IMG/VR virus record: IMGVR_UViG_2907408351_000002
From: a virus
Strand: one strand, 5' to 3'
DNA length: 64,000 nucleotides
Part shown: positions 1-42,333 of the stretch, in pieces
Layout of the letters: the number at the start of each line of letters is the position of its first letter
Position numbering within the stretch: position 1 is the stretch's first letter
Translations under genes and position numbers: made by a program
Notes under the pieces: generated by a model
What the model was told of the DNA's origin: nothing
What the model saw: the letters and a program-made list of their open reading frames with translations, nothing else
Databases searched by the model: none

Positions 1-1
1 T

Positions 2-412
2 AGTTGGGATTTAAACCAGAATGGAATTAAAATCCCACTCGATGTTCGAAAATTTTCGAATCTATGGGAACAAAAATATTATCTAAAATTATTGGATATC
101 AAAGAGAAGATAGCGAGACTTAAAAAGGAAAGGCCGGACGCACGTATTCGACGAAAGGTTATCCTTGATACGATGGCATTGAATCGAGAATATCATGAAT
201 ACCAAGATTGTGAAAGTGCATTAACGAGACTTCTTCAGGATATTCAGTCTGGACAGATTCAGGTCGTGAGTATGCTCTTGATTTCCATAAAATCCATCGT
301 CGGTGAAATGGTTATTGATTTAGAAGGATCTGGTTTAACAAAAGAAGAACGAATCGAACTCTTAGAAGAAGCATTAGAAATTGAAAAGCGAGAGGGAGGA
401 AAATGGAATTAA
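2..412 (+). CDS. Hypothetical protein, probably 5'-truncated (reading frame open from window edge to ATG at 92)
   Basis: ORF track 92..412; same frame has no stop between nt 2 and 92, so gene may start upstream of window. Confidence 0.35.
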   Translation, partial: SWDLNQNGIKIPLDVRKFSNLWEQKYYLKLLDIKEKIARLKKERPDARIRRKVILDTMALNREYHEYQDCESALTRLLQDIQSGQIQVVSMLLISIKSIVGEMVIDLEGSGLTKEERIELLEEALEIEKREGGKWN

Positions 413-613
413 CAAACCTCTATTATATTGATCCTGGTATAAAGAAAGTGGTCATTTTTTGTATTCTGAATTTTGAAATCTGTTATTATAAGCAATTCTA
501 TAATCTAAGACGCTGTTCTGATTCGCTCCTTATCTATGAATCGAGAAATTATTTTGAAGTAAAACACTATGCTGAAAATCAAGATTGTATTTTAGTGGGG
601 CCTTTTTACAAAT

Positions 614-1759
614 ATGGGACGTGAATTTCTAAAAACGGGTGGAAACACTTTCAAAGTCGAGATCGGTCCTTCAACTTTCAATCCAAATCCTCCAGACGAT
701 TTAATTCAAAGGCAAGGCGAACCGGTAATATGGTTGAGGTATTTTCCGAATCCAGACACGAACAGTCAGCAACTTATGGCGCTCCCTGGCAAGAATGGAA
801 CTATCTATCGGATTGATCAAACCTTTAGAGTTCCATTGGAGGATCTTCAAAATCAACAGTTTGATGGGAACGATCTTTACACTAGATACGGACCAATTTT
901 AAAAATTCGTAGGTTGTATGTGGTGCGCGCCGAAGAGGAAGGAGGAAACCTTGATTTAGAAATCGAAGAATTCGAAGGCAATAGGATAAGAATAGTTCCG
1001 AACAGGGAATTCGAATCCTATATGTTGGTGCGATGCGATTATGAAATTTCGGTAATCGATAAAGAAGAAATAATTTCAGTTGTTCAGAAGTTTGAAGGCG
1101 GAGTAGTAAATTTAGAACTTTTCCCACATAAATTAGTAACGAACGTTAAAGAAATTTGGCGTAAGAGGCCAACCGAAGATAAATTCTCCAAACTCTCTGA
1201 TTTCAAACACGACCTCGTAAACATATTTCTTAAAGATGTTTCTTCAATTGGATCTGTCTACGAAGTTAAGTTTGATTCTTTCTCTCCTATCAAAATTGGT
1301 TACAGAATGATAGAAGCGAAAGATCGGCGTTTAGGGAAATCCGGTATAGATTTGCAAATTGGCGACCTTGATGTCGTTGTGGGTTCAACGACAAACTTTG
1401 CAAAGGACGATTTGATTATCTTATTGAATTCTCTCATGACCGAGAAAGAAATTTGCAAAAGAAATGAAGAAGGTCTGTATCCAATAAAATACACACCAGT
1501 AAGAGAAATCTATGCAATCCATTCTCAGGATAAAGAATACACAAACTACTCCATTGAGAAATTTAGATTTTTGCGATTGAATGAGAAAACCCTTCCTAAT
1601 CAAATTTCAATCGTTTACGGATATAATCCGAAGTTCAAAATCTTGCCGTCTACTAAGCTATCTGCTCTTGCTGATAAAGTTCAGCCGCGAGAATGGGTTG
1701 CAAGATTGGAACCTGCACTTCTCGATCTTTCGGAAATAATCACCGTCATTTCGCGTTAA
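614..1759 (+). CDS. Hypothetical virion-module protein (381 aa)
   Basis: Long ORF, co-directional and tightly spaced with downstream structural genes; no motif recognised. Confidence 0.5.
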   Translation: MGREFLKTGGNTFKVEIGPSTFNPNPPDDLIQRQGEPVIWLRYFPNPDTNSQQLMALPGKNGTIYRIDQTFRVPLEDLQNQQFDGNDLYTRYGPILKIRRLYVVRAEEEGGNLDLEIEEFEGNRIRIVPNREFESYMLVRCDYEISVIDKEEIISVVQKFEGGVVNLELFPHKLVTNVKEIWRKRPTEDKFSKLSDFKHDLVNIFLKDVSSIGSVYEVKFDSFSPIKIGYRMIEAKDRRLGKSGIDLQIGDLDVVVGSTTNFAKDDLIILLNSLMTEKEICKRNEEGLYPIKYTPVREIYAIHSQDKEYTNYSIEKFRFLRLNEKTLPNQISIVYGYNPKFKILPSTKLSALADKVQPREWVARLEPALLDLSEIITVISR

Positions 1760-1763
1760 ATTA

Positions 1764-4040
1764 TTGCAATGTAAAAACAATCTTCGATTTGTCCCCCATC
1801 GTATGAATCAAGACGAGATAATCCAGAGTTTCTTAAAAGGGCGGAAATTTGAAGTTGGAAGGGAAAGCGTTAGGAAGGACGGAATTTACAGAAAGATTTC
1901 CGATTCAGGTGAAAAATCTAAACAGTGGAAGCTAATTCAAAAACATAACGAGGATAAAAAAAGATTCTCAAAAATATTAGAAGCGATAACGAACTTCTTC
2001 GGAGCTGATAAGAAGGACGCAAAGTTTATTCCGAAACGTGAATACGATTCCAATAAAATCGAAGATAAAGGAATCTCTATTCAAGAGTGGACAAGACATT
2101 TTACTAAATATTTTGAAAGTAAATCTCAAATCGATGCAAAATTTCATCAAGAAAAGAATGCAACTGAAACGAATTCGACTATTATCGAAAATAAGAATAA
2201 TTCAAATCAGGTAACAAATTTCACAACGAATATCACGAATCAAAATACAGGCAAACCTACATTCAAAAAATCAATTTTCAAAATACTTTACGACCTTTAT
2301 GGAGATGGAAATGGAAAATCAAATCGCGATAATGAATCGAATAATCGAGTCGAGTTATCAAATTCTACCGACAAGGGATCCGGAATGGGTCTATCAAAGC
2401 CTACTCGGGATGGCGAAAGCGGACAAATTAGAACCGACACCGGAAAATCTGCTCTCTTTGGCAGGAAATCTGGAAATGGATCTTCTTCAAGAGTTTCAAG
2501 TGACGAACGAATAACAAAAGAAGAATCGTTGGCGCTTTCCGTAGCGGACAAACTAAATACTTTTCGAGGCCTCTGGAGCAAGAAAAAACAAAACGAGATC
2601 AATTTAGAATGTAAGAAAATCCTTTCTACCACCCCACCTGAACAAATTACTTCAGAACAAAAAGAAATTTTAAGATTATACGAAGGTTCTGGAGGACAAA
2701 CGACAAATGCAGAAGTGGAGGCGAATAGAGGAATGCTATATCAATTCCTTACTCCAACAAAAGTCGTCGAGAAAATGCAGGATATACTTTCTCGCTATGT
2801 GAATGAGGGGGACAAGGGCATGGAACCTTCGGCTGGTATCGGCAGGTTTGCTGATGGCAAAGGAGGAAAATACAATTGGGATATGATGGAATATAACCCG
2901 GATGATAAAACAGCCTTTTCTATCGCAAAAATCTTAAATCCAGAAGCGATCGGAATTTTAACTTCGGATACAAAAAATAAAAAAGCAAAAGATCCTGAAC
3001 TTGGAAAGCAGGGACTTTCAAGGTTCACTGAAATTTCCCAGCAATTCAATTCAGCAAAACATCCTTGTAAGATTCTTATTGGGTCGGACGTAATCAAGGA
3101 AGGTGTTTCTTTGAATAACAATACAATTGCCGCGTATAATGCCTCGATAGATTGGAATCCAACTACAGAGGTTCAGAAAAGAGGTAGGCACCATCGACCG
3201 GGAAATTTACAAAAGAATGTTCAATGGATAGATATCTTGATGGAAGACTCTATTGATTCGAAACTCTATCAAAAGCAATCCGAAAAAATTTCTCGTATCA
3301 ATCAAATATTTGAAAAGAGTGGATCGGCAGCAATCGATGTTTCAGATATAAATCCGGAAGAATTGAAAACCGATATAATTCGAGATCCTAAAAGGAAGGC
3401 TCAATTTATTGTAAATGAAGAGGCTGCAAAAGTAAGGCAGGAAGCAAAGGAGCTCCAAGGAAAGTCTTTCACGCTTCAGGGTATAGTCGATGAAATTAGG
3501 GAACTTAGAAACACAGTCCAAAACGAAGAACGATGGTTAAGTGAAGAAAAAAAAGATCTAAAGGAAAATGTAGAAGAGTTTAACAAACTCAAAAAAAAAG
3601 GACGATCGGAAAGCTATGGACCACTGTCCGAATTCTCAATTAGCTATCAAAGAAAGAAAGTTCAAGACTTAGTTACAAGTCTTTCAATCAATAAAGCCAA
3701 GCTACAAAGAAATGAAGAGAACCTAGAAAGAAAAGGACTAAGTGATTTGGTTAAAGCCGAATCAGCGGCGAATAAACTTATGAGTGAGTCAGATAAACTA
3801 TCAGAAAAGGTCCGAGAAATACTCGGGAATAAGAAGGAAGAGTATATTTCAAAATTCACGAAGGAACTCGCGGAGAAGGAGAAGAACAAAGCGAAGGAAT
3901 CAATTGATTCGATTGTTTATAAGCATGTCCGCGAACTTTTATCCGTAGCAGGAATAAACGAGTTCCGTAAATCGCTTGCTTTGAATTCCGAAATCAGGAA
4001 TCGAATTACTCTAAAGCGATACTTGAAATCGGCATGTTAG
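1764..4040 (+). CDS. Large virion-module protein with N6-adenine MTase-like motifs (QFLTP / MEPSAGIGRF) and SNF2-type helicase C-terminal motifs V/VI (LIGSDVIKEGVSL / DWNPtteVQkrGRhHRpG); N/S/T-rich N-terminus, coiled-coil C-terminus
   Basis: Motifs read directly in translation (about nt 2715-2828 and 3073-3203). No Walker A/DEXH core between them. Confidence 0.6.
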   Translation: MQCKNNLRFVPHRMNQDEIIQSFLKGRKFEVGRESVRKDGIYRKISDSGEKSKQWKLIQKHNEDKKRFSKILEAITNFFGADKKDAKFIPKREYDSNKIEDKGISIQEWTRHFTKYFESKSQIDAKFHQEKNATETNSTIIENKNNSNQVTNFTTNITNQNTGKPTFKKSIFKILYDLYGDGNGKSNRDNESNNRVELSNSTDKGSGMGLSKPTRDGESGQIRTDTGKSALFGRKSGNGSSSRVSSDERITKEESLALSVADKLNTFRGLWSKKKQNEINLECKKILSTTPPEQITSEQKEILRLYEGSGGQTTNAEVEANRGMLYQFLTPTKVVEKMQDILSRYVNEGDKGMEPSAGIGRFADGKGGKYNWDMMEYNPDDKTAFSIAKILNPEAIGILTSDTKNKKAKDPELGKQGLSRFTEISQQFNSAKHPCKILIGSDVIKEGVSLNNNTIAAYNASIDWNPTTEVQKRGRHHRPGNLQKNVQWIDILMEDSIDSKLYQKQSEKISRINQIFEKSGSAAIDVSDINPEELKTDIIRDPKRKAQFIVNEEAAKVRQEAKELQGKSFTLQGIVDEIRELRNTVQNEERWLSEEKKDLKENVEEFNKLKKKGRSESYGPLSEFSISYQRKKVQDLVTSLSINKAKLQRNEENLERKGLSDLVKAESAANKLMSESDKLSEKVREILGNKKEEYISKFTKELAEKEKNKAKESIDSIVYKHVRELLSVAGINEFRKSLALNSEIRNRITLKRYLKSAC

Positions 4041-4076
4041 GAAATATTCTCTTGACTAAAATATTTAATAAAGGAT

Positions 4077-5039
4077 TTGTCCCAAGCCATGGCGAATAAT
4101 TGGAAAGGATTTCTTTTTGATAACCCAGATAGAGAAGCGAATCGCCATCTTTTGGAACGGTGTTTTACCGGGAAGGATGTCGCAACGATCGAGAACGGCC
4201 TTCCAGCGCAAGGTGGATGGGGAGCCGTAACGACACCCGATGAAATTCGTTATTCGTGGATGGTTGGAAATTCCCGTTTGATGTCCACGGATGGATCATA
4301 TATTACGAACGAAAATCTTCAAGGTTTGATCCACACTTTGACTTTAGCTTTATCGAATGAGCTCGAGCACGATATTTACCCACAAGTCTACCGTCATAGG
4401 CCGAAAGGAAACCTTCCTCGTAACATTGAGGACCACGCAAAATGGTTCGATGCGATCGATTTCAAAAATGAAGATGTTGGAAATAATTTCTTCGTTTCAT
4501 TGGGGAAAGTGCCTTTGATTAGAGTTTTACGATGGGAATTTGTGAATCCTGTATCCCGAAACTCTGACAATATTCCCGATGGTATGTCGATCGATCTTTT
4601 AAGCAAAGCGAGAATAAATTACGAGTCCGGGATTTTGAGATCAGTTGGGATGCTCGGGAATGGTTTCAATATTAACCCCAATGCCGCGATGAGGTCACAA
4701 AGAGTTTTTGCCGGTCTTCCACAAACAAGGGTTCCGACAGTCCATTACATTGATTTCATTTCAGGATACGATTCCGCAGCGCGAGTTCCCGCGGAATTGA
4801 GAGAAGTGATCGGAATTTTGGCGTGTTTAAGAGTGATGTCCGCACATGGTGAATCTAAAGCCGGCGCGATTGCATCCTACTCTGTGGGGGTCGGGCCGTT
4901 GCACGAATCCATATCCACAACTCAGTCAGCCACTTCATCGTTATTTGGAGCGCGGCAGCTTGAGCTTTACAACAGATTAAAAGCAATTGGTCCTGGACTT
5001 ATTGAAAGGTACAAACAAAAGCGCCTCGCAATTTTATAA
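4077..5039 (+). CDS. Hypothetical head-module protein (320 aa)
   Basis: ORF in structural operon; no motif recognised. Confidence 0.5.
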   Translation: MSQAMANNWKGFLFDNPDREANRHLLERCFTGKDVATIENGLPAQGGWGAVTTPDEIRYSWMVGNSRLMSTDGSYITNENLQGLIHTLTLALSNELEHDIYPQVYRHRPKGNLPRNIEDHAKWFDAIDFKNEDVGNNFFVSLGKVPLIRVLRWEFVNPVSRNSDNIPDGMSIDLLSKARINYESGILRSVGMLGNGFNINPNAAMRSQRVFAGLPQTRVPTVHYIDFISGYDSAARVPAELREVIGILACLRVMSAHGESKAGAIASYSVGVGPLHESISTTQSATSSLFGARQLELYNRLKAIGPGLIERYKQKRLAIL

Positions 5040-5051
5040 AAAAAGGAGAAC

Positions 5052-5078
5052 GGCTTATCGCCACACTGGCAATAAGCC
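5052..5078. promoter_or_regulatory. Hairpin GGCTTAT-CGCC-ACACT-GGCA-ATAAGCC after the 4077..5039 gene (no T-run)
   Basis: Inverted repeat read directly in sequence. Confidence 0.25.
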
Positions 5079-5089
5079 AAGAAATTTGA

Positions 5090-5497
5090 ATGGGTAGATC
5101 ATCGAGAGCATTTTCAAGACGTTTTGAAAAGAAACGTGTTCGAGAAATTTTAAACAAAGAATCATTCGAACTTTTAGGATTTTCGAAAAAGTTTTATGAT
5201 GAGAACATGAATCCGATTCAAAAATGGGTCGTACTAGCGCTCTTTAAAATGCGATTTCAAAAACTTTCTAAATTTGTACAATCCTTCGCGGGATTTACAA
5301 TTACACACGTTTCAAAAATTCCTCCAAAGATCGATATTTATTCTATGGGCACGTACGTCGGTGTCATCGGATATTTTCATTGGACAGGAAACCTTATCAT
5401 TGCTCGTATTCTAAGTTTAGGAAAGGATCCGGCTAAACTGATTGAATCGGCAAAGGTATTAGTTGCTTCAAATTATCGAGAATCTCTGAGTGAATGA
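5090..5497 (+). CDS. Questionable ORF (135 aa) overlapping an antisense ORF
   Basis: ORF track only; no RBS; overlaps 5433..5837 on minus strand. Confidence 0.2.
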   Translation: MGRSSRAFSRRFEKKRVREILNKESFELLGFSKKFYDENMNPIQKWVVLALFKMRFQKLSKFVQSFAGFTITHVSKIPPKIDIYSMGTYVGVIGYFHWTGNLIIARILSLGKDPAKLIESAKVLVASNYRESLSE

Positions 5498-5837
5498 TCC
5501 GAATACGATTGAAGAGCGCGTTTAATTCTGGTTTAGGCGCTTTCATCTTCTTTTGTTTTGGAGTCATGATATCGTATAGATTCCGGTGGTTTATGAATAT
5601 TGAATCTATCAGAGATAGCGTTAAATTTTTTTGTGCGTGAGTTAGGTAAGTAGGTTTTTGACGGATATCTTTTAGTTTTTTCATTTGGGAAGGATATATC
5701 GCAATCTTACCTTCCTCTTGAAGAACAAAGATCCGATCAATCGCCGCGTGAATAACTATAAATTCTGATTGAGGTATATTCGGTTGGTCCTGCATTTCTC
5801 TAGGAGAAAAACTTCTTAAGATTTTTTTGACAATCAT
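5433..5837 (-). CDS. Questionable antisense ORF (134 aa) inside head module gap, possible moron
   Basis: ORF track only; weak GGAAAT upstream of ATG. Confidence 0.25.
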   Translation of the reverse strand: MIVKKILRSFSPREMQDQPNIPQSEFIVIHAAIDRIFVLQEEGKIAIYPSQMKKLKDIRQKPTYLTHAQKNLTLSLIDSIFINHRNLYDIMTPKQKKMKAPKPELNALFNRIRIIHSEILDNLKQLIPLPIQSV

Positions 5838-5910
5838 TATTTTTTTTGTTGCATTTCCTATGAAGGATTCCTCTTGTCCGTCTCCAGTTATTTACATTGC
5901 GGAGAGATAA

Positions 5911-6708
5911 ATGAACCCGGACATTCGGCAAAGAATCCAATTCAATCAAAGCGAAATTTTAAAATCCGAAGTTCTTCTAACTTCATCCGAAAGAATTGGA
6001 CTCAACTTAATCACGGGAAGTAACCCTTTCTTTGCAAGGGAATCCGATACGGGAAGAATACTTTTTTGGGACGGTTGTCGCTGGGTGGATGTATTAAGCG
6101 ATCCGGGATTCTTAGGAGTAAACATTCTTCGATTGGCTTCGAATGTTTCCGATGGAGAAACGATTTCTATTGGCGGACTTACATTTCAATTTGATAGAGC
6201 TGCGGCGGGGGTCCCTGCCGGTAGAATCGGAATCACCTCACATTCAGACGACACACCGGTGAACGTTTCGACTTCGATTGTAGCGGCAATCAATTCTCAG
6301 AATCGGTCCGAAGTTTTGGCTATGAAAATGTCAAATAACGAAATTCTTACGATCAATAAAGACTTCGAATCGAATCCGTCCTTTGGATCAACCATGGCCG
6401 GTGCAAACAATCAGTGGGCATCACCGAATTCTATAGTAGGTGAAAAACCCGGAACGGTTCAATCGGGCTTTGTGAAAAGAATTCCAACCGCCGTGGAAGT
6501 GGCTCTCGGAAAAATTCGAGTAGTTTTTGATTTCCCACCGACTCTTCTGGAAATTCGCGTAGTTCTTTCCGCAAAACCGGGCGTTCAAGTCGCCTGGGAT
6601 GGGACGGTATCGGTATCAGGGAACATTCTTACACTCGATAACGCATCCGGTTCCACTCCGTTTTTGGCAACTCATACAATTACTCTTTGGGTAGGAAAGA
6701 GTGCGTAA
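5911..6708 (+). CDS. Hypothetical head-module protein (265 aa)
   Basis: First gene of translationally coupled run 5911-8311 (overlapping stops/starts). Confidence 0.5.
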   Translation: MNPDIRQRIQFNQSEILKSEVLLTSSERIGLNLITGSNPFFARESDTGRILFWDGCRWVDVLSDPGFLGVNILRLASNVSDGETISIGGLTFQFDRAAAGVPAGRIGITSHSDDTPVNVSTSIVAAINSQNRSEVLAMKMSNNEILTINKDFESNPSFGSTMAGANNQWASPNSIVGEKPGTVQSGFVKRIPTAVEVALGKIRVVFDFPPTLLEIRVVLSAKPGVQVAWDGTVSVSGNILTLDNASGSTPFLATHTITLWVGKSA

Positions 6709-7033
6709 AGTTTTCACCGCTCAAGATCTCGAACTTTCGCGGATCAATAACCACTTCACGATTCCTTTGGTTTCGGTAGATGAAGAAGGTAATCCGATAC
6801 CAAGTCCAAAAATTGTTCTTACAAATCCAGAACGAATTTTCGTGATTTTGGAAGTTAGAGCCGCGGGACCGTGGACTATTACATACCTGAATAACTCCGC
6901 AAAAGATGAAGAGCAAGAATACACAAGAAACGGAAACGGGAATGAACAATTTACCGTTCCGTTTTCCGTAGAAAAAGCAACCCTAACCGGAATTTCAGAA
7001 GTTTCCGGATATTTTATTCCCGTTTTCAAATGA
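6701..7033 (+). CDS. Hypothetical head-module protein (110 aa)
   Basis: 8-nt overlap with upstream gene, 4-nt overlap with downstream; antisense ORF 6721..7029 rejected. Confidence 0.45.
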   Translation: MRKVFTAQDLELSRINNHFTIPLVSVDEEGNPIPSPKIVLTNPERIFVILEVRAAGPWTITYLNNSAKDEEQEYTRNGNGNEQFTVPFSVEKATLTGISEVSGYFIPVFK

Positions 7034-7437
7034 ATCGCCTACGAGTAAAAATTGATATTTCTTTAGTCAATGAGAATGGAGGACTTACTCCTTTCCCAAC
7101 AAAATCGGTTGATTACGATTTTGCAGCGGGAAGTTTCGGAGATTTTTTTGATATCGATAACAATTCACGGGATACTCAAGTTTCTCCGATTCAAGTCGAT
7201 CTTTCTCGTTACAAAACAATCAACGCCGTTTTTCTCTTTGCAAATTATACGGATTCCGATCAGGAAAATGGAATCAAGGCCGGTGATCCCGCTAAAATTC
7301 AATTCCAATCAAAATTGAATGGGGATTGGAAGGAAGCGGAAGTCGTTGCATTGGGAGGATTTCAACCAGAGCAACTTTTAGTTAAGGCACTGGGGACGAG
7401 ACGAATCCGAGTCACAGAGGTAATATCAAGTGAGTGA
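7030..7437 (+). CDS. Hypothetical head-module protein (135 aa)
   Basis: Translational coupling in operon. Confidence 0.45.
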   Translation: MNRLRVKIDISLVNENGGLTPFPTKSVDYDFAAGSFGDFFDIDNNSRDTQVSPIQVDLSRYKTINAVFLFANYTDSDQENGIKAGDPAKIQFQSKLNGDWKEAEVVALGGFQPEQLLVKALGTRRIRVTEVISSE

Positions 7438-8311
7438 TTTCAAAAAAGTCAAAAGTCAACCCTTTCTCAAATCAGCACAAATTCAGGAAGTTGAGAGAGA
7501 AGGAAAGATGCTTAACGTCTTACTAAAAATCTCAAGCGAAACAAGGGATCGACAAGGTGATATGATTCTAAAAGGCGCGTGGGATCATCCAGATGATAAG
7601 GCATACTTTAAAAGTAAATCCTACATAGATTGGAATCATCTTTCTCATGTATTGACTTTTTCAAAATCCGATTCAGCAATCCATCGCGCCGAAATTGAAA
7701 AGGCGAGACAGGGCGCGGTTCTTGGTCGACCTAAAGGGGATTATTTTTGGGAGAACGACGGGCTCTATTGCCAAGCAAGACTCAATACGGAAAACGAATT
7801 TATTAAACCGTATGTTCCTTTGATAGAAGATGGCTTTGCGGGCCTTGAGGCTTCGGCTGCCGGTGGCTTTTATAAACCGACTCAGGAAACAATTTCTAAA
7901 TACGGTCCAAATACTTACGATCGAGCAAGAATCAGTCACATCGCAATTTGTCCACCCGGTCAGGCAGTAAATCCGGACACACAAATGGTCCTCATGAAAT
8001 CCGTACTCGCACAAACTTTCAATTCGGGAATCGCCGGGAGTAATCCTCCGGGTACTGAAATCGTAGTTGGAAAAATAGAAACCCTCCCTCCGATCCCTGA
8101 GAATGCCAATGAAGCAATTTTAGAATACATTCTTCAGTCTTGGGGATATCGAGATTACGTTTCTGATTCACTGATCAAATACATGGAAGCTGGTATTTTA
8201 AAACCGGAATTCGAAGCGATTCGAGATTTCATGATTAAATACGGACTCAACCCGCAGGAAGCCAGCGGACAAACCGTGAAACTTTTAGTTCATTTAGACC
8301 AAAAAGGTTAA
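7430..8311 (+). CDS. Putative prohead protease (assigned by position only: precedes scaffold-like and capsid-like genes)
   Basis: Synteny protease-scaffold-capsid; no catalytic motif confirmed by eye. Confidence 0.45.
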   Translation: MSDFKKVKSQPFLKSAQIQEVEREGKMLNVLLKISSETRDRQGDMILKGAWDHPDDKAYFKSKSYIDWNHLSHVLTFSKSDSAIHRAEIEKARQGAVLGRPKGDYFWENDGLYCQARLNTENEFIKPYVPLIEDGFAGLEASAAGGFYKPTQETISKYGPNTYDRARISHIAICPPGQAVNPDTQMVLMKSVLAQTFNSGIAGSNPPGTEIVVGKIETLPPIPENANEAILEYILQSWGYRDYVSDSLIKYMEAGILKPEFEAIRDFMIKYGLNPQEASGQTVKLLVHLDQKG

Positions 8312-8321
8312 GGAGAAATAA

Positions 8322-9047
8322 ATGAAAGATAAATACGAACAGTGGAAGAAAGGTTTCTTAAGCCCATTTATGAAATCGGAAACCACTCCTCCCGACAGTA
8401 CACCGCCTCCCGAAGCGAATGCGGCGGAAGAGCAGGAATCAGCGATCACTGACGAACTCATTTCGAAGTTGCAAGCTGCGATCGAGAAAGGCGAGGTAAA
8501 AGTCGAAGAAACCGCGATCAAAAAATGGTGCAAGGCGAACGGATTAGAGGAAGAAGATTCTCAAACCGTTTGGGATACGATTAAAGAAATCGTCGATGAG
8601 GAATCTTCCACTGGAACTGAACCGGACAAAACGATGGAAAAGGGAGGATTTGCTTCTTTGAAGTTACGAACTGAGTTTAAGGAATTCAGCAAATCTCTAA
8701 GTTCAATTTCGAAAAGGGACAAGGAACACAGCGCCGTCCTCGCACTCTTAATCCAAGACCTTCAAGCGTCGGATAAACAAATCACTGAGTTCAAAACTCA
8801 AATCGAATTTCTAAAGTCAGAAATTCAAAAAATCGGTGGAAACCCTAAGGATCCAAAAGATTCAAAAACTTCCATCGATCAGATTCCGGACGATCAACTT
8901 GGAACTCGGGATCAGATTGTAAAGAAACTGTTCAAGGGAGTTCAAGATAAAGCCTTAAACTTCGGTGACCTTCAGATATACAAATCACAAGGAACTCTCA
9001 CGGAACCTGCGAAATTATTTTTAAAATCTTCACAAGGAGGAAACTAG
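8322..9047 (+). CDS. Putative scaffolding protein (acidic, helical/coiled-coil, 241 aa)
   Basis: Composition (E/K/D-rich, heptad-like) and position immediately upstream of the capsid candidate. Confidence 0.45.
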   Translation: MKDKYEQWKKGFLSPFMKSETTPPDSTPPPEANAAEEQESAITDELISKLQAAIEKGEVKVEETAIKKWCKANGLEEEDSQTVWDTIKEIVDEESSTGTEPDKTMEKGGFASLKLRTEFKEFSKSLSSISKRDKEHSAVLALLIQDLQASDKQITEFKTQIEFLKSEIQKIGGNPKDPKDSKTSIDQIPDDQLGTRDQIVKKLFKGVQDKALNFGDLQIYKSQGTLTEPAKLFLKSSQGGN

Positions 9048-9050
9048 AAG

Positions 9051-10607
9051 ATGAAACTAAAAAATATTTGGCTAGTTTTAGCTTCGTTGGTTTTGTTGGT
9101 GGCCGGGAATCTTCTAGGTTCTGGAGATCCCTCTTACGTTATGATGGGTTTGGTCCCTGCAACGTTTACGGACATCAAACAATTAACAGAATTCGCTAAA
9201 ACTTTCAACGCGAATCCGGGTATCACGGATGTTGCGGCCCTTACAAATGGCCAAGCAACGACCATGCATTCTTTGGATGAGGAAATGGTCTTACTTGCTC
9301 AAGATAGCAACGAATACAATTTTCTCAACACGATGTATTACAAGGACACAAAATCCACCCTCAATATTTTCGGAAGAATTTTGGATTGGGGCGGAAACGG
9401 TGATTTCTCGTTTGTCGGGGAAGCGGATGACGCGGAATTCAAAGATGTAAGTATCGATAGAGTTGCGAAAATTATTTCCTATCTTGCAGAAGGATACGCT
9501 GTTTCTAAAGTTTTAGACATGTCGGATACCGGTTCCTTTGATCCGGAAGCGATCCAGGTCGAAGGTGCGATCAACCGAATCATGCAAACCCTGGCCTATG
9601 CCGCGTGGTACGGCAACAAATCCATCAATGGACTCGAATTTGACGGTTTCGTTACTGAACTCGTAAAGAGCGGACAGGTGTTCGATGCTGAAGGTGGATT
9701 TCCCGATCTAAAAAGTATCAAAGAATTGACAGTAAACATTCGGACGAATTACGGTTTTACAAACGAATTCTGGCTACATGATTCGGTTAAAAACGTATTA
9801 GACAATTATTATGTAGGAGCAAAGGAATTCATTGCCCAACCGTCAAACGGGAATCCATCTATTGGTTACAACATTCCGAGTTTAATCGGCGCGCCTTTGC
9901 GTAACAGTAAGCTAGATTTCAAAACTGATCTTTGGATCAACAGACACCTCGTTCCGCTTCCTACTTACAGAGCGTCGAATGGAGCTAAAACTCCTGGAAA
10001 AACGAACCCGAAAGCTCCGGATCAACCTACGGCAACTGCGGTCGTTTCCGGTGGTCCCATCTTTGGTTCAAAGTGGAAACCTGCTGATATCAAAGATTCT
10101 TCGAATTCTGATTCTGCAATCAGTTACAAGATTGTTGCATGTAATCGATTCGGAAGAAGTGCTGTGTCTGCAACTGTGACTACTCCAAGTCCTATGGTTA
10201 AAGGAAGATCTGTCGTTCTGACGATTACTCCCGCGGGTTCCGGTGAAACTGCCGACTTCTACCAAATTTTTAGAGAATCTCGTCCTGGAAATGGGGATTT
10301 TAAATTAACGGAACGAATTCCTAAGTCCGGAGGAACAACTACAGTTTATTCCGATGTAAACGAATGGATTCCTGGTTGTACGGAAGGTGTGATCGGTGAT
10401 TTTAACGCTCAGTCTCCGCTGAACCAAACTAGAACCTATCAGATGCTTCGGATGTTACCGATGCTTCAGACTAAATTTTCACCGAACGCAGTCTATCAAA
10501 GAAAGATGGCCGGTATGGTGGAATTTTACGGAGGATTGGCTGTCTTACAACCTAACCGCTTTTACGTAGTTAAGAATTTGCCTACTTCAATGTCCAGAGC
10601 AGCATAA
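9051..10607 (+). CDS. Putative major capsid protein with Ig-like insertion (518 aa)
   Basis: Position after scaffold; followed by strong rho-independent terminator; Ig/FN3-like beta-rich segment (…ISYKIVACNRFGRSAVSATVTT…). N-terminal hydrophobic stretch is atypical. Confidence 0.45.
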   Translation: MKLKNIWLVLASLVLLVAGNLLGSGDPSYVMMGLVPATFTDIKQLTEFAKTFNANPGITDVAALTNGQATTMHSLDEEMVLLAQDSNEYNFLNTMYYKDTKSTLNIFGRILDWGGNGDFSFVGEADDAEFKDVSIDRVAKIISYLAEGYAVSKVLDMSDTGSFDPEAIQVEGAINRIMQTLAYAAWYGNKSINGLEFDGFVTELVKSGQVFDAEGGFPDLKSIKELTVNIRTNYGFTNEFWLHDSVKNVLDNYYVGAKEFIAQPSNGNPSIGYNIPSLIGAPLRNSKLDFKTDLWINRHLVPLPTYRASNGAKTPGKTNPKAPDQPTATAVVSGGPIFGSKWKPADIKDSSNSDSAISYKIVACNRFGRSAVSATVTTPSPMVKGRSVVLTITPAGSGETADFYQIFRESRPGNGDFKLTERIPKSGGTTTVYSDVNEWIPGCTEGVIGDFNAQSPLNQTRTYQMLRMLPMLQTKFSPNAVYQRKMAGMVEFYGGLAVLQPNRFYVVKNLPTSMSRAA

Positions 10608-10631
10608 GAAGGCATTCAAAAATTAGAATTT

Positions 10632-10662
10632 AAAAAAGGGCAGGTTACTCTGCCCTTTTTTG
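10632..10662 (+). terminator. Rho-independent terminator (AAAAAAGGGCAG-gttact-CTGCCCTTTTTT)
   Basis: Perfect 6-bp GC stem, 6-nt loop, T6 run; A-run on 5' side makes it potentially bidirectional. Confidence 0.65.
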
Positions 10663-10673
10663 TATAAGGGATT

Positions 10674-12515
10674 ATGTTAATTTCAAACTCAGAAGGAAAA
10701 ACCGATATCGCCGCTCTTACGAACGGAGCCGCAATTACGAAGGATCCACTGTCGGTTCCGAAGAAGAAAAGTTTTCACGATACGTTCAAAGATTTCTTTA
10801 AAAAAAAGTATAAGAAGTCTGATGATAAGAAAACGATTTGTGTAGACTTCGACGGGGTTATCCATTCATATCAGAGCGGGTGGCTGGGTATTGATCAGAT
10901 CCCGGATCCACCGGTTGAGGGCGCGTTTGATTGGCTTCTCGAAATTTCGAACTTTTTCAATGTCATAATTTATTCTTCCCGGTGTTCGGACGCGAAAGGA
11001 ATCGATGCAATAAAAAGTTTTTTGAATACTCGCCAAGATGAATGGCGACAATCTAGATACGCGAGGAATCTCGGTGTCCCGAAAATGAGTAAATTTTCGG
11101 ATCTATTTCAGTATTCCGCGAATAAAATTCCAGCGCACTTATATTTAGATGATCGAGGAATTCAATTCCAAGGAGTTTTTCCGTCGACAGAAGAGTGTGA
11201 AAATTTTTGTTCTTGGGTAGATTCAAAAGAATTCAAGAAATCATCGTCTTCTTTAAAAATAAAAAAGGGGGATGTGAATTCTGATCCAACAGAAGCACAA
11301 AAGAAAGCCGGAAATTATAAAAAGAAACATCTAAAAATTCATGATCTTCCGATTACGATTGAGAATCCCGCGGGAAGCAGTCGGAAAGGTATCGACCCGG
11401 ATGGAAAATCTTGGGAAACAAAAATGAACCACCATTATGGTTATATAAAGGGTTCAAAGGGAAATGACGGAGACCACATAGACGTTTTTATCGGACCGAA
11501 TCCAAATTCGGAAATTGTTTTTGTAATCAATCAAGTGAATCCGAAAACAAAAGAGTTCGACGAACATAAAGTTATGCTCGGATTTGATTCGGACGAGGAC
11601 GCAAGGAACGGTTACCATTCTTGCTACGAAAAAGGTTGGAGTGGACTTGGAGACATGGTCTCCATGACGATCAACCAGTTTCAAAACTGGTTAGAAAATT
11701 CGGATACTCAAAAGGAAGTTGAAGAATTCTTTCATAAAGCACAAGCGGCGCAAGTTGGAGAAAGAAGAACTTGGAATGACGGTCTTCAACATGAAAAAAC
11801 TTCGAGTGGAGATTGGAAAGCGGTCGGGGCCGGAAAAGAATCTGCTCAAGCATATAAACCCACCGCAAAAGTTCCGACATCCGGGAGTTCCAAAACTCAT
11901 GCAGTCACCCACGAACAAAAGGCCGTCGAAGTTTTGGATCGTTGGAAAGAGTTTGAGCAGAAAGCAAAAGAAAGAAATAAAGAAAGAGTCGCTAGGACTC
12001 CTCCGGAAAAACGAGCGCAACTGAATGACGTAAAATACGCCGTTCCGGGCGATATCGTTCGAATCGAACGTCCAAACAGCGGAAAAATCAATCGTGGTCA
12101 TATCGCGGAAGTTATGGGAAAGGTTGATGATATGATCAAAATCAAACTTCCATCCGGAAGTGAATTTCTTTTTTCACCTCATGATTTGGCCTATGCGAAA
12201 TCATCCGGATCTCAACAGATCTTTTCATATCAGTTCTTAAAAAGTTCAAATTCGGAAAATCCAAACATTCACACTTTTTCCGACGGAAATACTTATCAGA
12301 AAGAAGGAAATGGTTGGCGTTTGATTTCATCAGAAGAAGAAAACGATTCATCTCCGGAGGAAGATAAAGAGTTCGTCGAAAAGGCAATGAAGGCTGGAGA
12401 AAAAGTTCCGGTTAAAGTACTTAAGAATTATCCGGAACTTTTAAAGCAATTTCCGGAATACGAAAATCGGGTCAAGTCCATCGAGGCTCTTTCAAGTAAA
12501 TTCCTGAAACAATGA
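10674..12515 (+). CDS. Three-part protein: N-terminal HAD-superfamily phosphatase (NT5C-like: VDFDGV…VIIYSS…K…YLDDRG), central inorganic-pyrophosphatase-like domain (HHYGYIKG…DGDHIDVFIG…FDEHKVMLGF), K/E-rich C-terminal region
   Basis: HAD motifs I-IV read in order; central block aligns by eye to family-I PPase core (E. coli YPCNYGYI…DGDPVDVLV…). Placement between capsid and neck genes. Confidence 0.55.
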   Translation: MLISNSEGKTDIAALTNGAAITKDPLSVPKKKSFHDTFKDFFKKKYKKSDDKKTICVDFDGVIHSYQSGWLGIDQIPDPPVEGAFDWLLEISNFFNVIIYSSRCSDAKGIDAIKSFLNTRQDEWRQSRYARNLGVPKMSKFSDLFQYSANKIPAHLYLDDRGIQFQGVFPSTEECENFCSWVDSKEFKKSSSSLKIKKGDVNSDPTEAQKKAGNYKKKHLKIHDLPITIENPAGSSRKGIDPDGKSWETKMNHHYGYIKGSKGNDGDHIDVFIGPNPNSEIVFVINQVNPKTKEFDEHKVMLGFDSDEDARNGYHSCYEKGWSGLGDMVSMTINQFQNWLENSDTQKEVEEFFHKAQAAQVGERRTWNDGLQHEKTSSGDWKAVGAGKESAQAYKPTAKVPTSGSSKTHAVTHEQKAVEVLDRWKEFEQKAKERNKERVARTPPEKRAQLNDVKYAVPGDIVRIERPNSGKINRGHIAEVMGKVDDMIKIKLPSGSEFLFSPHDLAYAKSSGSQQIFSYQFLKSSNSENPNIHTFSDGNTYQKEGNGWRLISSEEENDSSPEEDKEFVEKAMKAGEKVPVKVLKNYPELLKQFPEYENRVKSIEALSSKFLKQ

Positions 12516-13261
12516 GCGATTCTATTCTTTCCAAACTCAAATCGAAACCAAACATGTTTCCGCGGTTTTATGCGGTTCTCGGAGCCGCGGCAACTGATAT
12601 ACGAGACAAGTGGGAATTTTTGGCGGGAAAGCGCGCTGGGGTTTCAATCAAAAATGGCGGATTAGGTTGGTGGGGTCAACAGTATCTTGCAAACGGACAA
12701 ATCCAAATCAAACGATCCGGTTTGGGATACCAGATTTTTTATGATAGCAACAAGTCTTCGTATGATTTCGAAAAAGTAGCAGAAAGTGGTCGCGGTTCTT
12801 TTGATATCGCTTCCTACCTACTCTCGAATTCCAAGAAAGTAAGAATAAATGCAAGAGGAAAGAAATTTCTGATCATTCCGATGAAAGGAAAAGAAGAACA
12901 ATCCGCTTCCGCGGTGATGAAAATTCTTTCAACTTCCAAGGTAACCTCGCCAATGGGTGGGAAAGTAAAAAGGAATTCTTATTCGGTTGAAAAAATTGAA
13001 AATAAATCTCGTACAAACACTGTAAAATTTCAGCAGTTGAATGAACGAGGTGGAAGTTCCTCAAGTGTTAGTAAGATGGTGGTTTTAACAGAGGATTCGA
13101 ATTGGGAGCCCTATCCAGAAATAACAGGACAGAAATTTGTTCAAAGAATGCAGGAAGAAGCAGATAGGATTCTCAGAAGTCCTGAATTTTTAAAAAACCT
13201 TGCAGAGGCATTGACGTTTGACTTAAAAGAAATCTATTTAAAGAAGAAAAAAAAGAAATGA
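12512..13261 (+). CDS. Hypothetical neck/head-completion region protein (249 aa, ends in Lys6)
   Basis: 4-nt overlaps with neighbours. Confidence 0.5.
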   Translation: MSDSILSKLKSKPNMFPRFYAVLGAAATDIRDKWEFLAGKRAGVSIKNGGLGWWGQQYLANGQIQIKRSGLGYQIFYDSNKSSYDFEKVAESGRGSFDIASYLLSNSKKVRINARGKKFLIIPMKGKEEQSASAVMKILSTSKVTSPMGGKVKRNSYSVEKIENKSRTNTVKFQQLNERGGSSSSVSKMVVLTEDSNWEPYPEITGQKFVQRMQEEADRILRSPEFLKNLAEALTFDLKEIYLKKKKKK

Positions 13262-14034
13262 TACTTTGTCTTTATCAATGCGATCCGGAACAAAGGGTAA
13301 TCGAAGAGCTCGCAAAATTGTTAGAAGAAAGTGGTTTGGAAGACCGTTCCATAACTTCCAAAGAGATCGTTACCTTTGGGCATCCTTTATATACTTATGC
13401 GAGCGCCGGAGAAATAGCGAACGATAGTTTTTTCCCTAAGATAGGAGTTGAGTTTCAAAATGATGATATCTCATCAGACTTAGGAATGAACCTTCAATAT
13501 TCCGATTTCAATGAACAGATAAAGCGGAAATTGCGGTTTTATAGGGATCGGCATGAATCAGAATTCGAAAATCCGGATTTTGCTCAATTTGATAAAGTCC
13601 TAAATGAAAATTTCAAGACAGTAGAATATTACACTAGTCGGGTTGAATCGAATGTTTTGATCACGGGTTGGGGTGGAGGCGGTGTCGCAGGGAGACGAAC
13701 AAGTAACGATCTTTATAGAATCGTGACGGCCCTTCTCCCATTTCTTTTTACGAGAATTTATAAAAACTACCGCGTTACCGCGCGTATCGATGGAAGGCTA
13801 CAAGCTAATATCGAAGCGCCGGAGATTATGCGCGGCTGTTGGGGTTTTGAATTCTCGATAGTAATTTCGCAGTTAGTCCGAGTTTACAAATTCAGCAAGG
13901 AACCGTTTATCTCAAAAGCAGACGTATATTTCGATGGAAAAGATTCTGATGGTTCAACTTATCAGGCAGGAATAAAATTTCAGGCATTGCACGGAAAAAT
14001 TAAAAATTATTCTCCTGATCCTAAAAAAATCTGA
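13258..14034 (+). CDS. Hypothetical neck/tail-terminator region protein (258 aa)
   Basis: Operon position. Confidence 0.5.
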   Translation: MILCLYQCDPEQRVIEELAKLLEESGLEDRSITSKEIVTFGHPLYTYASAGEIANDSFFPKIGVEFQNDDISSDLGMNLQYSDFNEQIKRKLRFYRDRHESEFENPDFAQFDKVLNENFKTVEYYTSRVESNVLITGWGGGGVAGRRTSNDLYRIVTALLPFLFTRIYKNYRVTARIDGRLQANIEAPEIMRGCWGFEFSIVISQLVRVYKFSKEPFISKADVYFDGKDSDGSTYQAGIKFQALHGKIKNYSPDPKKI

Positions 14035-14059
14035 TTGATTTTTTCAAAGGATACTTCTC

Positions 14060-14341
14060 TTGTCCACATGCCATATGGCAGGCAATGAGAGCTCGACTCC
14101 TACCTCTTCAGAGAATAAAGAAAGTTTTTTAGAAAAGTTCATCACCGAAAAAGAGGAACTTTCGCGTTACTCGATGGCGCATACATTTCGTGTTTTTTGT
14201 ACTCAAAATTTCAAAAAATTTAACGAGTTGAAAACCGAGAATGATATCAAAAATGCCTTCGAACTTTTTTTTCATGGAAGAGAACCAAAAGAAGAATCGA
14301 AAGCACCTGCCACCTTAGAATCTAAAGGTGGTCTTAAGTAA
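14060..14341 (+). CDS. Hypothetical small protein (93 aa) upstream of sheath
   Basis: ORF; stop overlaps sheath start. Confidence 0.4.
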   Translation: MSTCHMAGNESSTPTSSENKESFLEKFITEKEELSRYSMAHTFRVFCTQNFKKFNELKTENDIKNAFELFFHGREPKEESKAPATLESKGGLK

Positions 14342-16149
14342 TGGGAACTTCGGGAAGTGTTTTTCAGGGAAGAGCGCTCGTAGCTCCTGGAGCTCGCGGT
14401 AAATTTCAAAGTATCGGAGCGAATCCCGGCGCCGGCGCGGATAAATTCACTTTAGTTCTCATCGGTAAAGCCGCGAACGGTGTTTATTTTAACGATTCGT
14501 CTTCTCCTTCGCTCCGAGATGATCAGCGGTACTATACAATTTCCGGCGGAGTAAACGGGTACAATCAGGCAAAAAGTATTTTAGGGAGTGGAGAATTACT
14601 TCAAGCAATCAAGTTCGCGACTTTTCCCTCGAGTGATGACAGCCTTGCTCAAGGCCCGCAACTTATCAAATTTCTGAACATCTGCCCAAATACAAAGGCT
14701 TTCAATGACTTCCCGTCTTTAAAGACCGGTCAAACGCATAAAATCTCTTTTCCAATTCCGGGCCCTAACGGGAAGAAGGTTCGGTTTTATAAGAACATCA
14801 CGGATAAGACAATTCAAATCGGTGATGACAAAGGAATTCTACAATCGAGAAAACTTGAGAAAGCCGTTTTCAACGTTTCTTATATTGGAAACGCTACGGC
14901 CGCGCTTTTGGAAATTGACGCAACAAATCTAAAAGTAACTTTAACCGGATCCACCGACAATTCCGCTTCGATTTCTATCAAATTCGCGGATTATCCAACG
15001 ATCGGTGAAGTAGTCGATCAGATCAATTCTCAAGTCGGATACGTGGCTTCGCTCATCGAATCTCCAGAATTTTTAGCTGCAAATCTTGATCATATCGAAG
15101 CGACCGATTCAAATTCAGTAAAGGCGCCAACGAATCAATTGATCTACGCGGATCTTTTTATGGAACAGAAATTCATAGAGGGAACCGGTTTCGGTGAAGT
15201 CGTTTTAGGACCGGTAAGGAAACCTTTCGCCGGTTCTACGATGTTTAAGTATCTTTCGCAAGGCGGAACGACCGGAACACCCGGATCCACCGATTTAAAA
15301 GATGCGATCACCTTCTCCAAAAAAATCTCTGGGTTATACCGAAACATTCTCTCTTCCACCCTTTCCGACAAAACGTATTTTAAACAAGTTTGTTTTGATA
15401 TGATCTCTCCGGATACCGGATTGGAAACAATCGGAGGTTGCGGAGCCGACGGAGTTTTAACAATTCCTCAGAGACAGGACGAAGGCAGAACGCTCGGAAC
15501 GTACTGGATGACTTACGGATTGGAATCGTTTCGAGATTTTGATATCAACGGGATAGAGCAAACTTTCCCTGGGTATTTTCTGGCCGTAATCGATAACGCA
15601 ATTTCCGCGGCGAATTCTCCAAGAATTTCTCCGACATGGAAGTCTTTGAATATTCTGAAAAGCGCGGAGTATATTTCGCGAGATTCCGCGGTACGGGACG
15701 CTTGTATCAAAGCCGGAACTTTGATTTTAGATCAAAAACCTTCCGACGATTCCTGGGTAATTTCAAGAAGTGTAACGACCGAACGAAAAGATGATTTGAT
15801 CTTAAATGAAAAATCATCCGTTGCAACCGCACTTACGATGGTTCGCGAGCTCCGGGTTGGCTTTAACGCGAAATTCATCGGACAAAGTATGGTCGATGAT
15901 TCCTCCCCTGTTTCGGGTGTTCGTGTTCCGGATGTTCTCAACTACATCGAAGGAAAACTCGAGTATTTTGTTCAACAAGGTTACATGATCGGTTCCGCGG
16001 CGCTCGGTGTCGAAGCATTCAAGAAGAATTTCTCTATTCAAGTCGATGGGGACACTTGGTCCTTCATGGACCTTGAAGGGAACGTTACTACACCTTTGAA
16101 TTTCATTTTCTATATTCTTTCCCTAAAACCATTGAGAGGTAAGGCATAA
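14341..16149 (+). CDS. Putative contractile tail sheath protein (602 aa)
   Basis: Size and conserved order sheath-tube-chaperone(frameshift)-tape measure. Confidence 0.5.
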   Translation: MGTSGSVFQGRALVAPGARGKFQSIGANPGAGADKFTLVLIGKAANGVYFNDSSSPSLRDDQRYYTISGGVNGYNQAKSILGSGELLQAIKFATFPSSDDSLAQGPQLIKFLNICPNTKAFNDFPSLKTGQTHKISFPIPGPNGKKVRFYKNITDKTIQIGDDKGILQSRKLEKAVFNVSYIGNATAALLEIDATNLKVTLTGSTDNSASISIKFADYPTIGEVVDQINSQVGYVASLIESPEFLAANLDHIEATDSNSVKAPTNQLIYADLFMEQKFIEGTGFGEVVLGPVRKPFAGSTMFKYLSQGGTTGTPGSTDLKDAITFSKKISGLYRNILSSTLSDKTYFKQVCFDMISPDTGLETIGGCGADGVLTIPQRQDEGRTLGTYWMTYGLESFRDFDINGIEQTFPGYFLAVIDNAISAANSPRISPTWKSLNILKSAEYISRDSAVRDACIKAGTLILDQKPSDDSWVISRSVTTERKDDLILNEKSSVATALTMVRELRVGFNAKFIGQSMVDDSSPVSGVRVPDVLNYIEGKLEYFVQQGYMIGSAALGVEAFKKNFSIQVDGDTWSFMDLEGNVTTPLNFIFYILSLKPLRGKA

Positions 16150-24639: not shown

Positions 24640-24714
24640 AGCAATCTTTAGAATTTAAAAACAAGTCCTTTTTTAGTTGCATTTTTACTTAGGACAATCT
24701 TTTGTCCCTTCCCC

Positions 24715-25878: not shown

Positions 25879-26516
25879 TCGCGAAGTATCTTTCTTTATT
25901 TAATCGATCAGGTGCAGTTTTCAAAGCGCTTTTTTTTGATCCGGAACGAATTGAAAAACCTCAGATTAAAAACATCAACGATATCAACAAAGGCGCCGTT
26001 TTCAATGCCCTTGAATGGCATTACAGATTCGTAAAACGACTCATCGAAGAATTTCCGCTTACGAATGCCTCCGGATTCCTCCTAAAAGCCTGGGGAACTT
26101 TCTTAGGTGTTCCGAATGATCAAGCTCTTCCGGATCCAGAATACAGAGCCAAGATTCTTTCAAAGATTCTCGCGATCGTGGGAACGCTTCCGGCGATAAA
26201 GAATTTGGTAAAGAATATTGATCGGGTTGAAGTTAAGGAAGCGCAAGACTTAGGATTCTTCCTCGATGTAGCCTACCTTGACACTCCGGTCTTAAAAAAC
26301 AGACCGTTCGGGTCCGTAATGACGCACCCAACGAATGCAATATACATAATTTTTAATACGATTTTCGATATAGATTCAGCGCTTTTAAGAACAATCTATC
26401 AGCTAAAGAGTGCCGGCATTGGAGTCTTTGCCGGCGTGATTACCGAATATCCTAAATTCGGATTTTTGTATTTAGATTATGGTTTTATCGATAAGGATTA
26501 TTCAGGAGTAAATTAA
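25875..26516 (+). CDS. Putative baseplate protein (P2 gpI / Mu gp48-like position)
   Basis: Synteny only. Confidence 0.4.
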   Translation: MIAKYLSLFNRSGAVFKALFFDPERIEKPQIKNINDINKGAVFNALEWHYRFVKRLIEEFPLTNASGFLLKAWGTFLGVPNDQALPDPEYRAKILSKILAIVGTLPAIKNLVKNIDRVEVKEAQDLGFFLDVAYLDTPVLKNRPFGSVMTHPTNAIYIIFNTIFDIDSALLRTIYQLKSAGIGVFAGVITEYPKFGFLYLDYGFIDKDYSGVN

Positions 26517-42048: not shown

Positions 42049-42333
42049 TCATTTTGCTTTCCTTCCTCCATTGTGCTTTATTCCATTCTTTTTAATCGAA
42101 AGTTTGATTCGTTTCGATTCGCAATGCCGGCATATGTTTAAGAAAAATTTCTGTTTCCATTTTACCGGAAACATCCAAAGTTCCTTTGTCGCTTCACATA
42201 CATCGCATCGTCTCACGGTGTGAATGAGCTCCTTACCGAATTCTTTTACCATCCTCTCGTAAGCTCTTCGGAGACGAACATTATCCCGGCCGCCTGCGTT
42301 CTGGAAGGAAACCTTTCCTTTAAACGACTTCAT
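42049..42333 (-). CDS. Small Zn-ribbon protein (start uncertain; ORF-track start 42432 overlaps sbcC-like gene)
   Basis: CDVCE…CRHCE motif. Confidence 0.3.
   Translation of the reverse strand: MKSFKGKVSFQNAGGRDNVRLRRAYERMVKEFGKELIHTVRRCDVCEATKELWMFPVKWKQKFFLNICRHCESKRIKLSIKKNGIKHNGGRKAK

Follow-up and report, generated by a model that had tools for sequence, protein, structure and literature searches.

Among polyvalent proteins, a "DNA methylase-helicase dyad" has been described, with DarB of phage P1 as its archetype (Iyer et al., 2017; PMC5512222). P1 DarB is a head-packaged protein of ~250 kDa that has been shown experimentally to counter EcoK and EcoB (PMC9024508; PMC5512222). The first 30 aa are enough to target DarB to the capsid, and darB is a non-structural accessory gene of P1 (PMC9024508). 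The methyltransferase (MTase) of the dyad is preceded by LPD36, a helical domain with a GxG[GAS] motif between helices (PMC5512222). Here, a gene related to this family was analysed in a viral sequence of 64,000 nucleotides (IMG/VR record IMGVR_UViG_2907408351_000002; hereafter, the window), which is an LE1-like, myovirus-type Leptospira phage-plasmid (Saintgironsvirus-like). LE1-like circular prophages are widespread in Leptospira (PMC4758666). The gene (1803..4040, + strand, 745 aa plus stop) is very probably a catalytically dead, internally deleted allele of a large DarB-like adenine-MTase/SNF2-translocase polyvalent protein belonging to the virion module of these elements. Its two enzymatic remnants arose together, through a single deletion and not by gradual decay.

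The gene was found intact, with about 1,700-1,970 aa, in nine elements: phage LE1, the element encoding P0004, the L. ainazelensis replicon contig_0027, the IMG/VR loci L006, L007, L008 and L009 (1,728-1,745 aa), and the PLSDB plasmids pLiSL40 of L. interrogans and pLiSL21 of L. kirschneri. The closest full-length relative, identified in a genome scan of L. ainazelensis 201903071, is split across the ends of the 72,776-bp contig NZ_JAFFPT010000021.1 (L004/L005). Because these ends overlap by exactly 77 nt, the contig represents a circular replicon of 72.8 kb, and joining them yielded an intact MTase-helicase gene of 1,731 aa; the gene spans the artificial contig ends, hence the NCBI entry of just a 'partial' protein of 447 aa (P0002). 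In blastn comparisons, positions 1-2942 of the window aligned with positions 4184-7125 of the joined replicon (79.6% identity) and positions 2943-9000 with 10084-16143 (82.5% identity). The sole difference in this alignment across 9 kb was a gap of 2,958 nt, equivalent to 986 codons and in frame. An identical breakpoint (2942/2943) was obtained by blastn against the IMG/VR relatives L006, L007 and L011, and the ends of the high-scoring segment pairs (HSPs) overlapped by 10-12 nt at the breakpoint against L007 and L011. A single deletion and its boundaries were thereby established directly.

The deletion junction (CCAGAAGCG, 2940..2948, + strand), which encodes P-E-A, was located by the blastn breakpoints and by three-way alignments, in which the window reads AAATCCAGAAGCGATCGG. 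In the relatives, the left parental site reads AAATCCAnnnGCGAAT, with the pattern ...AAT CCA nnn GCG AAT..., and the right parental site reads (T/C)CCAGA(A/G)GATGCGATCGG, with the pattern ...CCA GAR GAT GCG ATC GG.... The short similar sequences present at both parental sites (CCAGA.. and GCGA, 4-8 nt, with at most about 8 nt shared) would be the signature of slippage or illegitimate recombination. The missing 2,958-bp segment was found nowhere else within the 64-kb window by tblastn or blastn, and the genes on both sides abut the open reading frame (ORF). Given this absence and the directly adjoining neighbours, no frameshift conceals a complete enzyme, a possibility that had been left standing by the original prediction, made from the sequence alone.

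These observations also bear on whether the real gene might be full length, about 3 kb of it having been collapsed or skipped during sequencing or assembly. The element is known only from short-read draft assemblies, and the related Logan contig L003 shows a probable assembly frameshift; however, the identical 745-aa protein is found under two GenBank accessions (PJZ51639.1 and PJZ61945.1), the reading frame is preserved exactly, and no fragment of the missing segment lies elsewhere in the window. Given both accessions and a junction homology far shorter than an assembler k-mer, such an artefact is very unlikely.

Two inverted-repeat pairs were also noted around this position, one of 20 nt with 90% complementarity (1562-1581 / 2918-2937) and one of 17 nt with 88% complementarity (1626-1642 / 2953-2969). 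In both, one arm lies in the upstream gene, and the other arms flank the deletion junction, which is not the arrangement of a single inverted segment; the pairs may be chance matches in AT-rich DNA.

The maximal ORF (1764..4040, + strand) comprises 758 aa when counted from a TTG codon. The ATG codon at 1803 was taken as the likely true start because the identical database protein and the conserved MNQxEII of the relatives begin there, the TTG form adding 13 unconserved codons. The resulting 745-aa protein is identical to WP_100787434.1 (P0001), described as a "helicase-related protein" of Leptospira adleri. A scan of the window for promoters and terminators gave a signal no higher than background.

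According to the original prediction, the protein combined gamma-class MTase motifs with SNF2 motifs V and VI lying about 85 aa further on, with neither an ATPase core nor NPPY, between an N/S/T-rich N-terminus and a coiled-coil tail. In the numbering of the 745-aa protein, the YQFLTP motif of the MTase TP-motif helix was located at aa 313-318 (nt 2739-2756), the S-adenosylmethionine-binding motif I MEPSAGIGRF at aa 340-349 (nt 2820-2849), the SNF2 motif V LIGSDVIKEGVSL at aa 425-437 (nt 3075-3113) and motif VI DWNPTTEVQKRGRHHRPG at aa 450-467 (nt 3150-3203), all on the + strand. The whole motif set is thus present, the distance from motif I to motif V being 85 aa, start to start. No [NDS]PP[YFW], Walker A, DEAH or SATP motif was found in the window protein, in agreement with the predicted gaps; its sole G.GK[ST] match, GNGKS, falls within a low-complexity stretch and has no P-loop context. 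The composition of the N-terminal part and the helical nature of the tail were likewise borne out, as detailed below.

The retained parts can be followed along the gene (+ strand throughout). The N-terminal region (1803..2162, aa 1-120) is conserved in LE1-like orthologues, with 76% identity to P0003; comparison with the first 30 residues of P1 DarB makes it a candidate capsid-targeting part. It is followed by a low-complexity linker (2163..2537, aa 121-245), 49% of which is N, S, T or G, and for which the AlphaFold2 (AF2) model gave no structure, with a predicted local distance difference test (pLDDT) score of about 25. A helical domain located before the MTase (2574..2738, aa 258-312) carries an EGSGG motif at aa 294-298 that is kept in all relatives, and appears to match the published description of LPD36, judged on motif and position only. 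The MTase remnant (2739..2945, aa 313-381) comprises the TP helix and motif I together with the strand and helix that follow, and is included in an alignment with residues 489-611 of the LE1 orthologue (57% identity, E 1e-57); from the equivalent part, the relatives run on into GNPPYG and the Eco57I Pfam domain, whereas the window is deleted from motif III/IV onward. Beyond the junction, the remnant of the SNF2 C-terminal (RecA2) lobe (2949..3242, aa 383-480), recognised by Pfam Helicase_C and an ISWI alignment, contains motifs V and VI; the opening strand and helix of the C-lobe and the entire N-terminal ATPase lobe are missing. The post-helicase C-terminal region (3243..4037), recognised by phrog_1685, the family matches, residues 1515-1649 of DarB and AF2, is conserved across the giant-protein family, many representatives matching up to aa ~750. 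Three long helices (aa 529-695) are predicted within it and are the only part to reach pLDDT 55-90 in a poor AF2 model that was built from a 3-sequence alignment.

Homology of these parts to the full-length proteins was established directly by several searches. A match to phrog_1685 (E 3e-114) covered two separated stretches of this 2,278-position profile, one of them aligning query residues 411-751 with profile positions 1446-1783. Three collinear BLASTP blocks linked the window protein with LE1 gp15 (YP_009860154.1, 1,971 aa, annotated as 'restriction endonuclease subunit M / putative methylase'): residues 19-250 with 8-238 (E 2e-30), 271-393 with 489-611 (the alignment cited above) and 388-749 with 1595-1952 (45% identity, E 1e-86). 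Fragments of full-length orthologues were 76-84% identical to the window protein on either side of the junction, and an exhaustive HMMER search retrieved 933 matches at E<1e-3 among 1.84 billion representatives, mostly proteins of 1,500-4,800 aa matching in two stretches each. In the annotated phage collection, LE1 was the only phage with a relative, found by protein-level search; this level of comparison was needed, as megablast of positions 1-9000 of the window against the same collection gave no match. A Pfam scan of the window protein detected Helicase_C, of which just the second half matched (aa 423-480 of the 758-aa ORF, profile positions 56-110, E 1e-6, above the gathering score), and the MTase domain (Eco57I / N6_Mtase) was not found. 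This last result is what could be expected if the motifs were a chance resemblance within an unrelated structural protein, an outcome that the original prediction had allowed for; against such significant profile, BLASTP and HMMER matches, including the collinear blocks and the similarity on both sides of the junction, chance is refuted as an explanation.

In LE1 gp15, an Eco57I-type MTase domain was located at aa 624-715, SNF2-rel_dom at aa 1132-1300 and Helicase_C at aa 1629-1687; Eco57I/N6_Mtase, SNF2-rel_dom and Helicase_C domains are likewise the domain set of the full-length orthologues. Comparison of these positions with the aligned blocks shows that the catalytic MTase half and the ATPase lobe sit exactly in the part missing from the window. 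All full-length relatives carry NPPY, GLGKT, DEAH and SATP, thereby settling whether homologues retain the ATPase and NPPY motifs, and the window carries none of them. A gamma-class adenine MTase without motif IV (NPPY) cannot methylate, and an SF2/SNF2 ATPase without the Walker A/B lobe cannot hydrolyse ATP. With no Pfam MTase domain above the gathering score and no NPPY, the window protein would not be an active gamma-class N6-adenine MTase, nor, with only motifs V and VI remaining, would it be a complete SWI2/SNF2 ATPase.

A single in-frame loss of about 2,958 bp (986 codons), probably through slippage or illegitimate recombination between the two short similar sequences, brought the opening third of the MTase Rossmann fold (TP helix and motif I with the strand and helix after them) up against strand two of the SNF2 C-lobe. 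Gone are MTase motifs III-VIII with NPPY among them, the stretch between the domains, the ATP-binding lobe in its entirety (GLGKT, DEAH, SATP) and motif IV of the helicase, and the N-terminal region, the linker, the EGSGG helical domain, the start of the MTase, the SNF2 C-lobe from its second strand and the helical C-terminus were kept. Because the catalytic motifs are lost, the remnant is predicted neither to methylate nor to translocate DNA, and the antirestriction activity proposed for the family would be gone with these functions. The full-length protein would be packaged and injected as P1 DarB is. With its N-terminus and helical C-terminus retained, the remnant may also be produced even now, and perhaps packaged as inert cargo. 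The deletion would have been tolerated because the gene is accessory.

The LE1 protein contains an additional segment of ~250 aa (aa 239-488; ~9720-10470 of the LE1 locus L001), located between the low-complexity linker and the LPD36-like domain and reduced to ~160 aa in the close relative P0004. Since it is absent from all members of the adleri/ainazelensis/interrogans clade, this segment lies outside the window-specific deletion. Its residues 242-342 match Vibrio phage 137E35-1 (tblastn, 35% identity, E 3e-12), suggesting a separate mobile module.

The retained parts of the gene showed no accelerated evolution. Private changes, counted for each half apart at sites invariant in all other taxa, amounted to one in each half for the window, compared with 5-8 (N part) and 2-4 (C part) for the intact relatives. 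In neighbour-joining trees, the terminal branches of the window were the shortest of the five taxa (0.103 and 0.045), and those of five flanking genes were ordinary. Therefore, the deletion happened recently or the remnant remains under constraint, two situations that the rate tests cannot separate. Under continued constraint, the deletion product could be a repurposed short form selected for a non-enzymatic role, possibly as an internal head or ejection protein, as a scaffold combining N-terminal targeting with C-terminal helices, or as a DNA binder acting through the residual RecA2 lobe. An in-frame deletion that leaves an ORF of 745 codons intact, the slow change of the retained parts relative to ordinary flanking genes and the retention of both family-conserved termini are consistent with this possibility. 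However, one third of deletions are in frame by chance, and the full-length gene persists intact in nine related elements. Two further relatives disrupt it in quite different ways, which points to dispensability rather than to a specific new architecture. Furthermore, the junction peptide KILNPEAIGIL, searched as a back-translated pattern, gave 0 matches in IMG/VR and JGI metagenomes, and word-index protein searches brought up no further short homologue (3 and 2 matches, the second search missing even the identical protein). The allele is known only from L. adleri. Repurposing is thus considered unlikely.

A few candidates for recurrent short forms were discarded. The apparent short proteins P0013 (805 aa) and P0067 (803 aa) have no start methionine and are contig-truncated fragments, which also speaks against a repurposed architecture. 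Query residues 267-745 reported within 1.5 kb for L007-L010 in the IMG/VR table were a reporting artefact, as the loci themselves show that L007-L009 are full length and L010 is disrupted differently. P0003 is only the product of a frameshift-interrupted Logan contig (DRR536392_1333, L003): at ~1690 a frameshift after ...IVPQSF splits the gene, and the MTase continues in another frame. This frameshift is probably an assembly error because the near-identical L007 is continuous there.

A related, slightly less probable proposal is that the short allele is a selected, catalytically inert variant, serving as head or ejection cargo or escaping a host defence that senses the active DarB-like enzyme, and not passive debris. 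The strand-helix boundary of the MTase was spliced to the second strand of the SNF2 C-lobe in a topologically equivalent manner (strand-helix-loop | strand), and both the candidate capsid-targeting N-terminus and the conserved helical C-terminus were kept; the intact frame and the lack of accelerated evolution are compatible with such a variant, but nothing supports it positively. Several points also weigh against a dead deletion allele as the explanation. The remnant is without sign of decay, which fits a recent deletion and selection for a new role equally; the junction mechanism was derived from relatives about 80% identical, not from the ancestral sequence; the AF2 prediction is uninformative for the fused centre (mean pLDDT 40); and the DarB analogy for LE1 gp15 and its relatives is based on 22-25% identity and gene context. 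Nevertheless, a dead allele created by one deletion remains very probably the best explanation. Of the "decayed or repurposed" vestige originally proposed, the decayed part is upheld by collinear homology and motif loss, the cause being one deletion, and the repurposed part received no positive evidence.

Two relatives carry other lesions in the same gene. In L010 (IMGVR_UViG_2706794491_000005), unrelated DNA of 1.65 kb (L010 2446-4099) takes the place of the N-terminal ~790 codons. This element is 99% identical to L007, in which the replaced stretch corresponds to positions 1706-4099. A 303-aa ORF without Pfam match lies in the insert, and a 107-aa ORF on its other strand has an HRALFDV motif that recalls the C-terminus of a DEDD exonuclease; the site may be a hot spot for cassette exchange. 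In L011 (IMGVR_UViG_2519899799_000003), the gene is full length in DNA, and a frameshift at ...IIRDPKEK| (~9530-9590) cuts off the C-terminal ~200 codons, which continue in another frame; this may reflect either a true pseudogene or a sequencing error in a homopolymer. Because it was independently damaged in these two relatives, the gene looks dispensable in the LE1-like group.

The assignment of the window to this group follows from the gene order and protein similarity of its virion module to LE1, the LE1-specific PHROGs along its length and the presence of ParB. As originally predicted, the gene belongs to the virion module: it adjoins a homologue of LE1 gp14 (phrog_3738) upstream and phrog_772 downstream, in the order of LE1 gp14-gp16, and lies 5 kb upstream of the major head gene (9051-10607), which is followed by genes for the tail sheath (14341-16149), the baseplate (22762-25878) and a tail fibre (26516-27838). 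Further along, the early/replication region contains an SbcC-like (794 aa) and SbcD-like (392 aa) pair (42320-45879, - strand), and genes for a DNA polymerase (55043-56305) and ParB (60886-61752) were also located. A second polyvalent-type virion protein is encoded beside the major head gene (10674-12515, + strand, 613 aa) and contains an InPase domain (PF18823, aa 207-341, E 4e-58). Over aa 200-613, it is 95% identical to a 471-aa homologue of L. ainazelensis, the neighbouring genes showing ~80% identity, and it carries an extra insert of ~155 aa (aa 44-199), absent from L. ainazelensis, with a HAD-like 'DFDGVIHSY' motif and a phrog_1238 match. Thus, as judged from the deletion in the DarB-like gene and the insert in the InPase-domain gene, one cargo protein lost domains and its neighbour gained one.

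The analysis corrects the database label "helicase-related protein": the gene is a DarB-like antirestriction gene in a form inactivated by deletion. Across about a dozen LE1-like elements, three independent disruptions of this gene were found, namely the internal deletion in the window, the N-terminal replacement in L010 and the frameshift in L011, suggesting that phage-plasmids persisting as plasmids often lose this costly accessory gene of 5 kb. Although its practical value is modest, the allele shows which parts of large phage methylase-helicase proteins can be lost, and is a natural mini-version for asking what a DarB-like polyvalent protein must contain to enter the capsid.

Compared with known systems, the gene is closest to LE1 gp15 and its orthologues. 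They occupy the same slot of the virion module, flanked by homologues of gp14 and gp16, and share with the window a collinear N-terminal region, the pre-MTase helical domain, motif I, SNF2 motifs V and VI and the helical C-terminus, at 37-57% identity for LE1 and 74-86% for closer relatives. In contrast to the window, they retain about 986 codons with the MTase catalytic half, the linker and the SNF2 ATPase lobe, and LE1 gp15 has in addition the segment missing from the whole clade.

The LE1 gp15-type family is, as judged from alignments, a distant homologue of P1 DarB, the relationship that the original prediction had proposed for checking. LE1 gp15 matched P1 darB in tblastn over residues 482-1494 (25% identity, E 1e-17), as well as many phage genes annotated "DarB-like antirestriction", and the window protein itself yielded two collinear pieces: residues 314-349 (TP helix and motif I) aligned with DarB 90-125 (E 0.002) and residues 405-598 (motifs V/VI and helical region) with DarB 1457-1649 (E 7e-6). 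P1 DarB (YP_006479.1, 2,255 aa) follows the same domain order, from TP helix and motif I to SNF2 motifs V/VI and the helical region, and its gene is likewise located close to head genes. However, about 1,330 aa separate the two aligned pieces in DarB and about 55 in the window, the 255-aa N-terminal extension is absent from DarB, and identity is only 22-25%. Packaging and activity against EcoK and EcoB were shown by experiment only for DarB, whereas a packaging and antirestriction role of the Leptospira proteins would be an analogy.

With the MTase-SWI2/SNF2 dyad (phrog_1685), a family whose giant members number in the hundreds across phages and mobile elements, the window shares the succession of an LPD36-like GxGG motif, a TP-helix adenine MTase and SNF2. 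Common descent was found in the phrog_1685 match, the LE1 gp15 blocks, the 933 family matches and the DarB HSPs. The gene has the late/virion location of the dyad, and its EGSGG, conserved in all relatives, lies before the MTase between predicted helices, the comparison with LPD36 being one of motif and position only. A complete adenine MTase was not found, FLTP and EPSAGIG being present and [NDS]PP[YFW] absent. Whereas two active enzymatic domains define the dyad, both are truncated and predicted to be non-functional in the window. The locus is a case of ordinary gene decay in a Leptospira phage-plasmid, a degenerate new allele of a known family and not a new kind of system.

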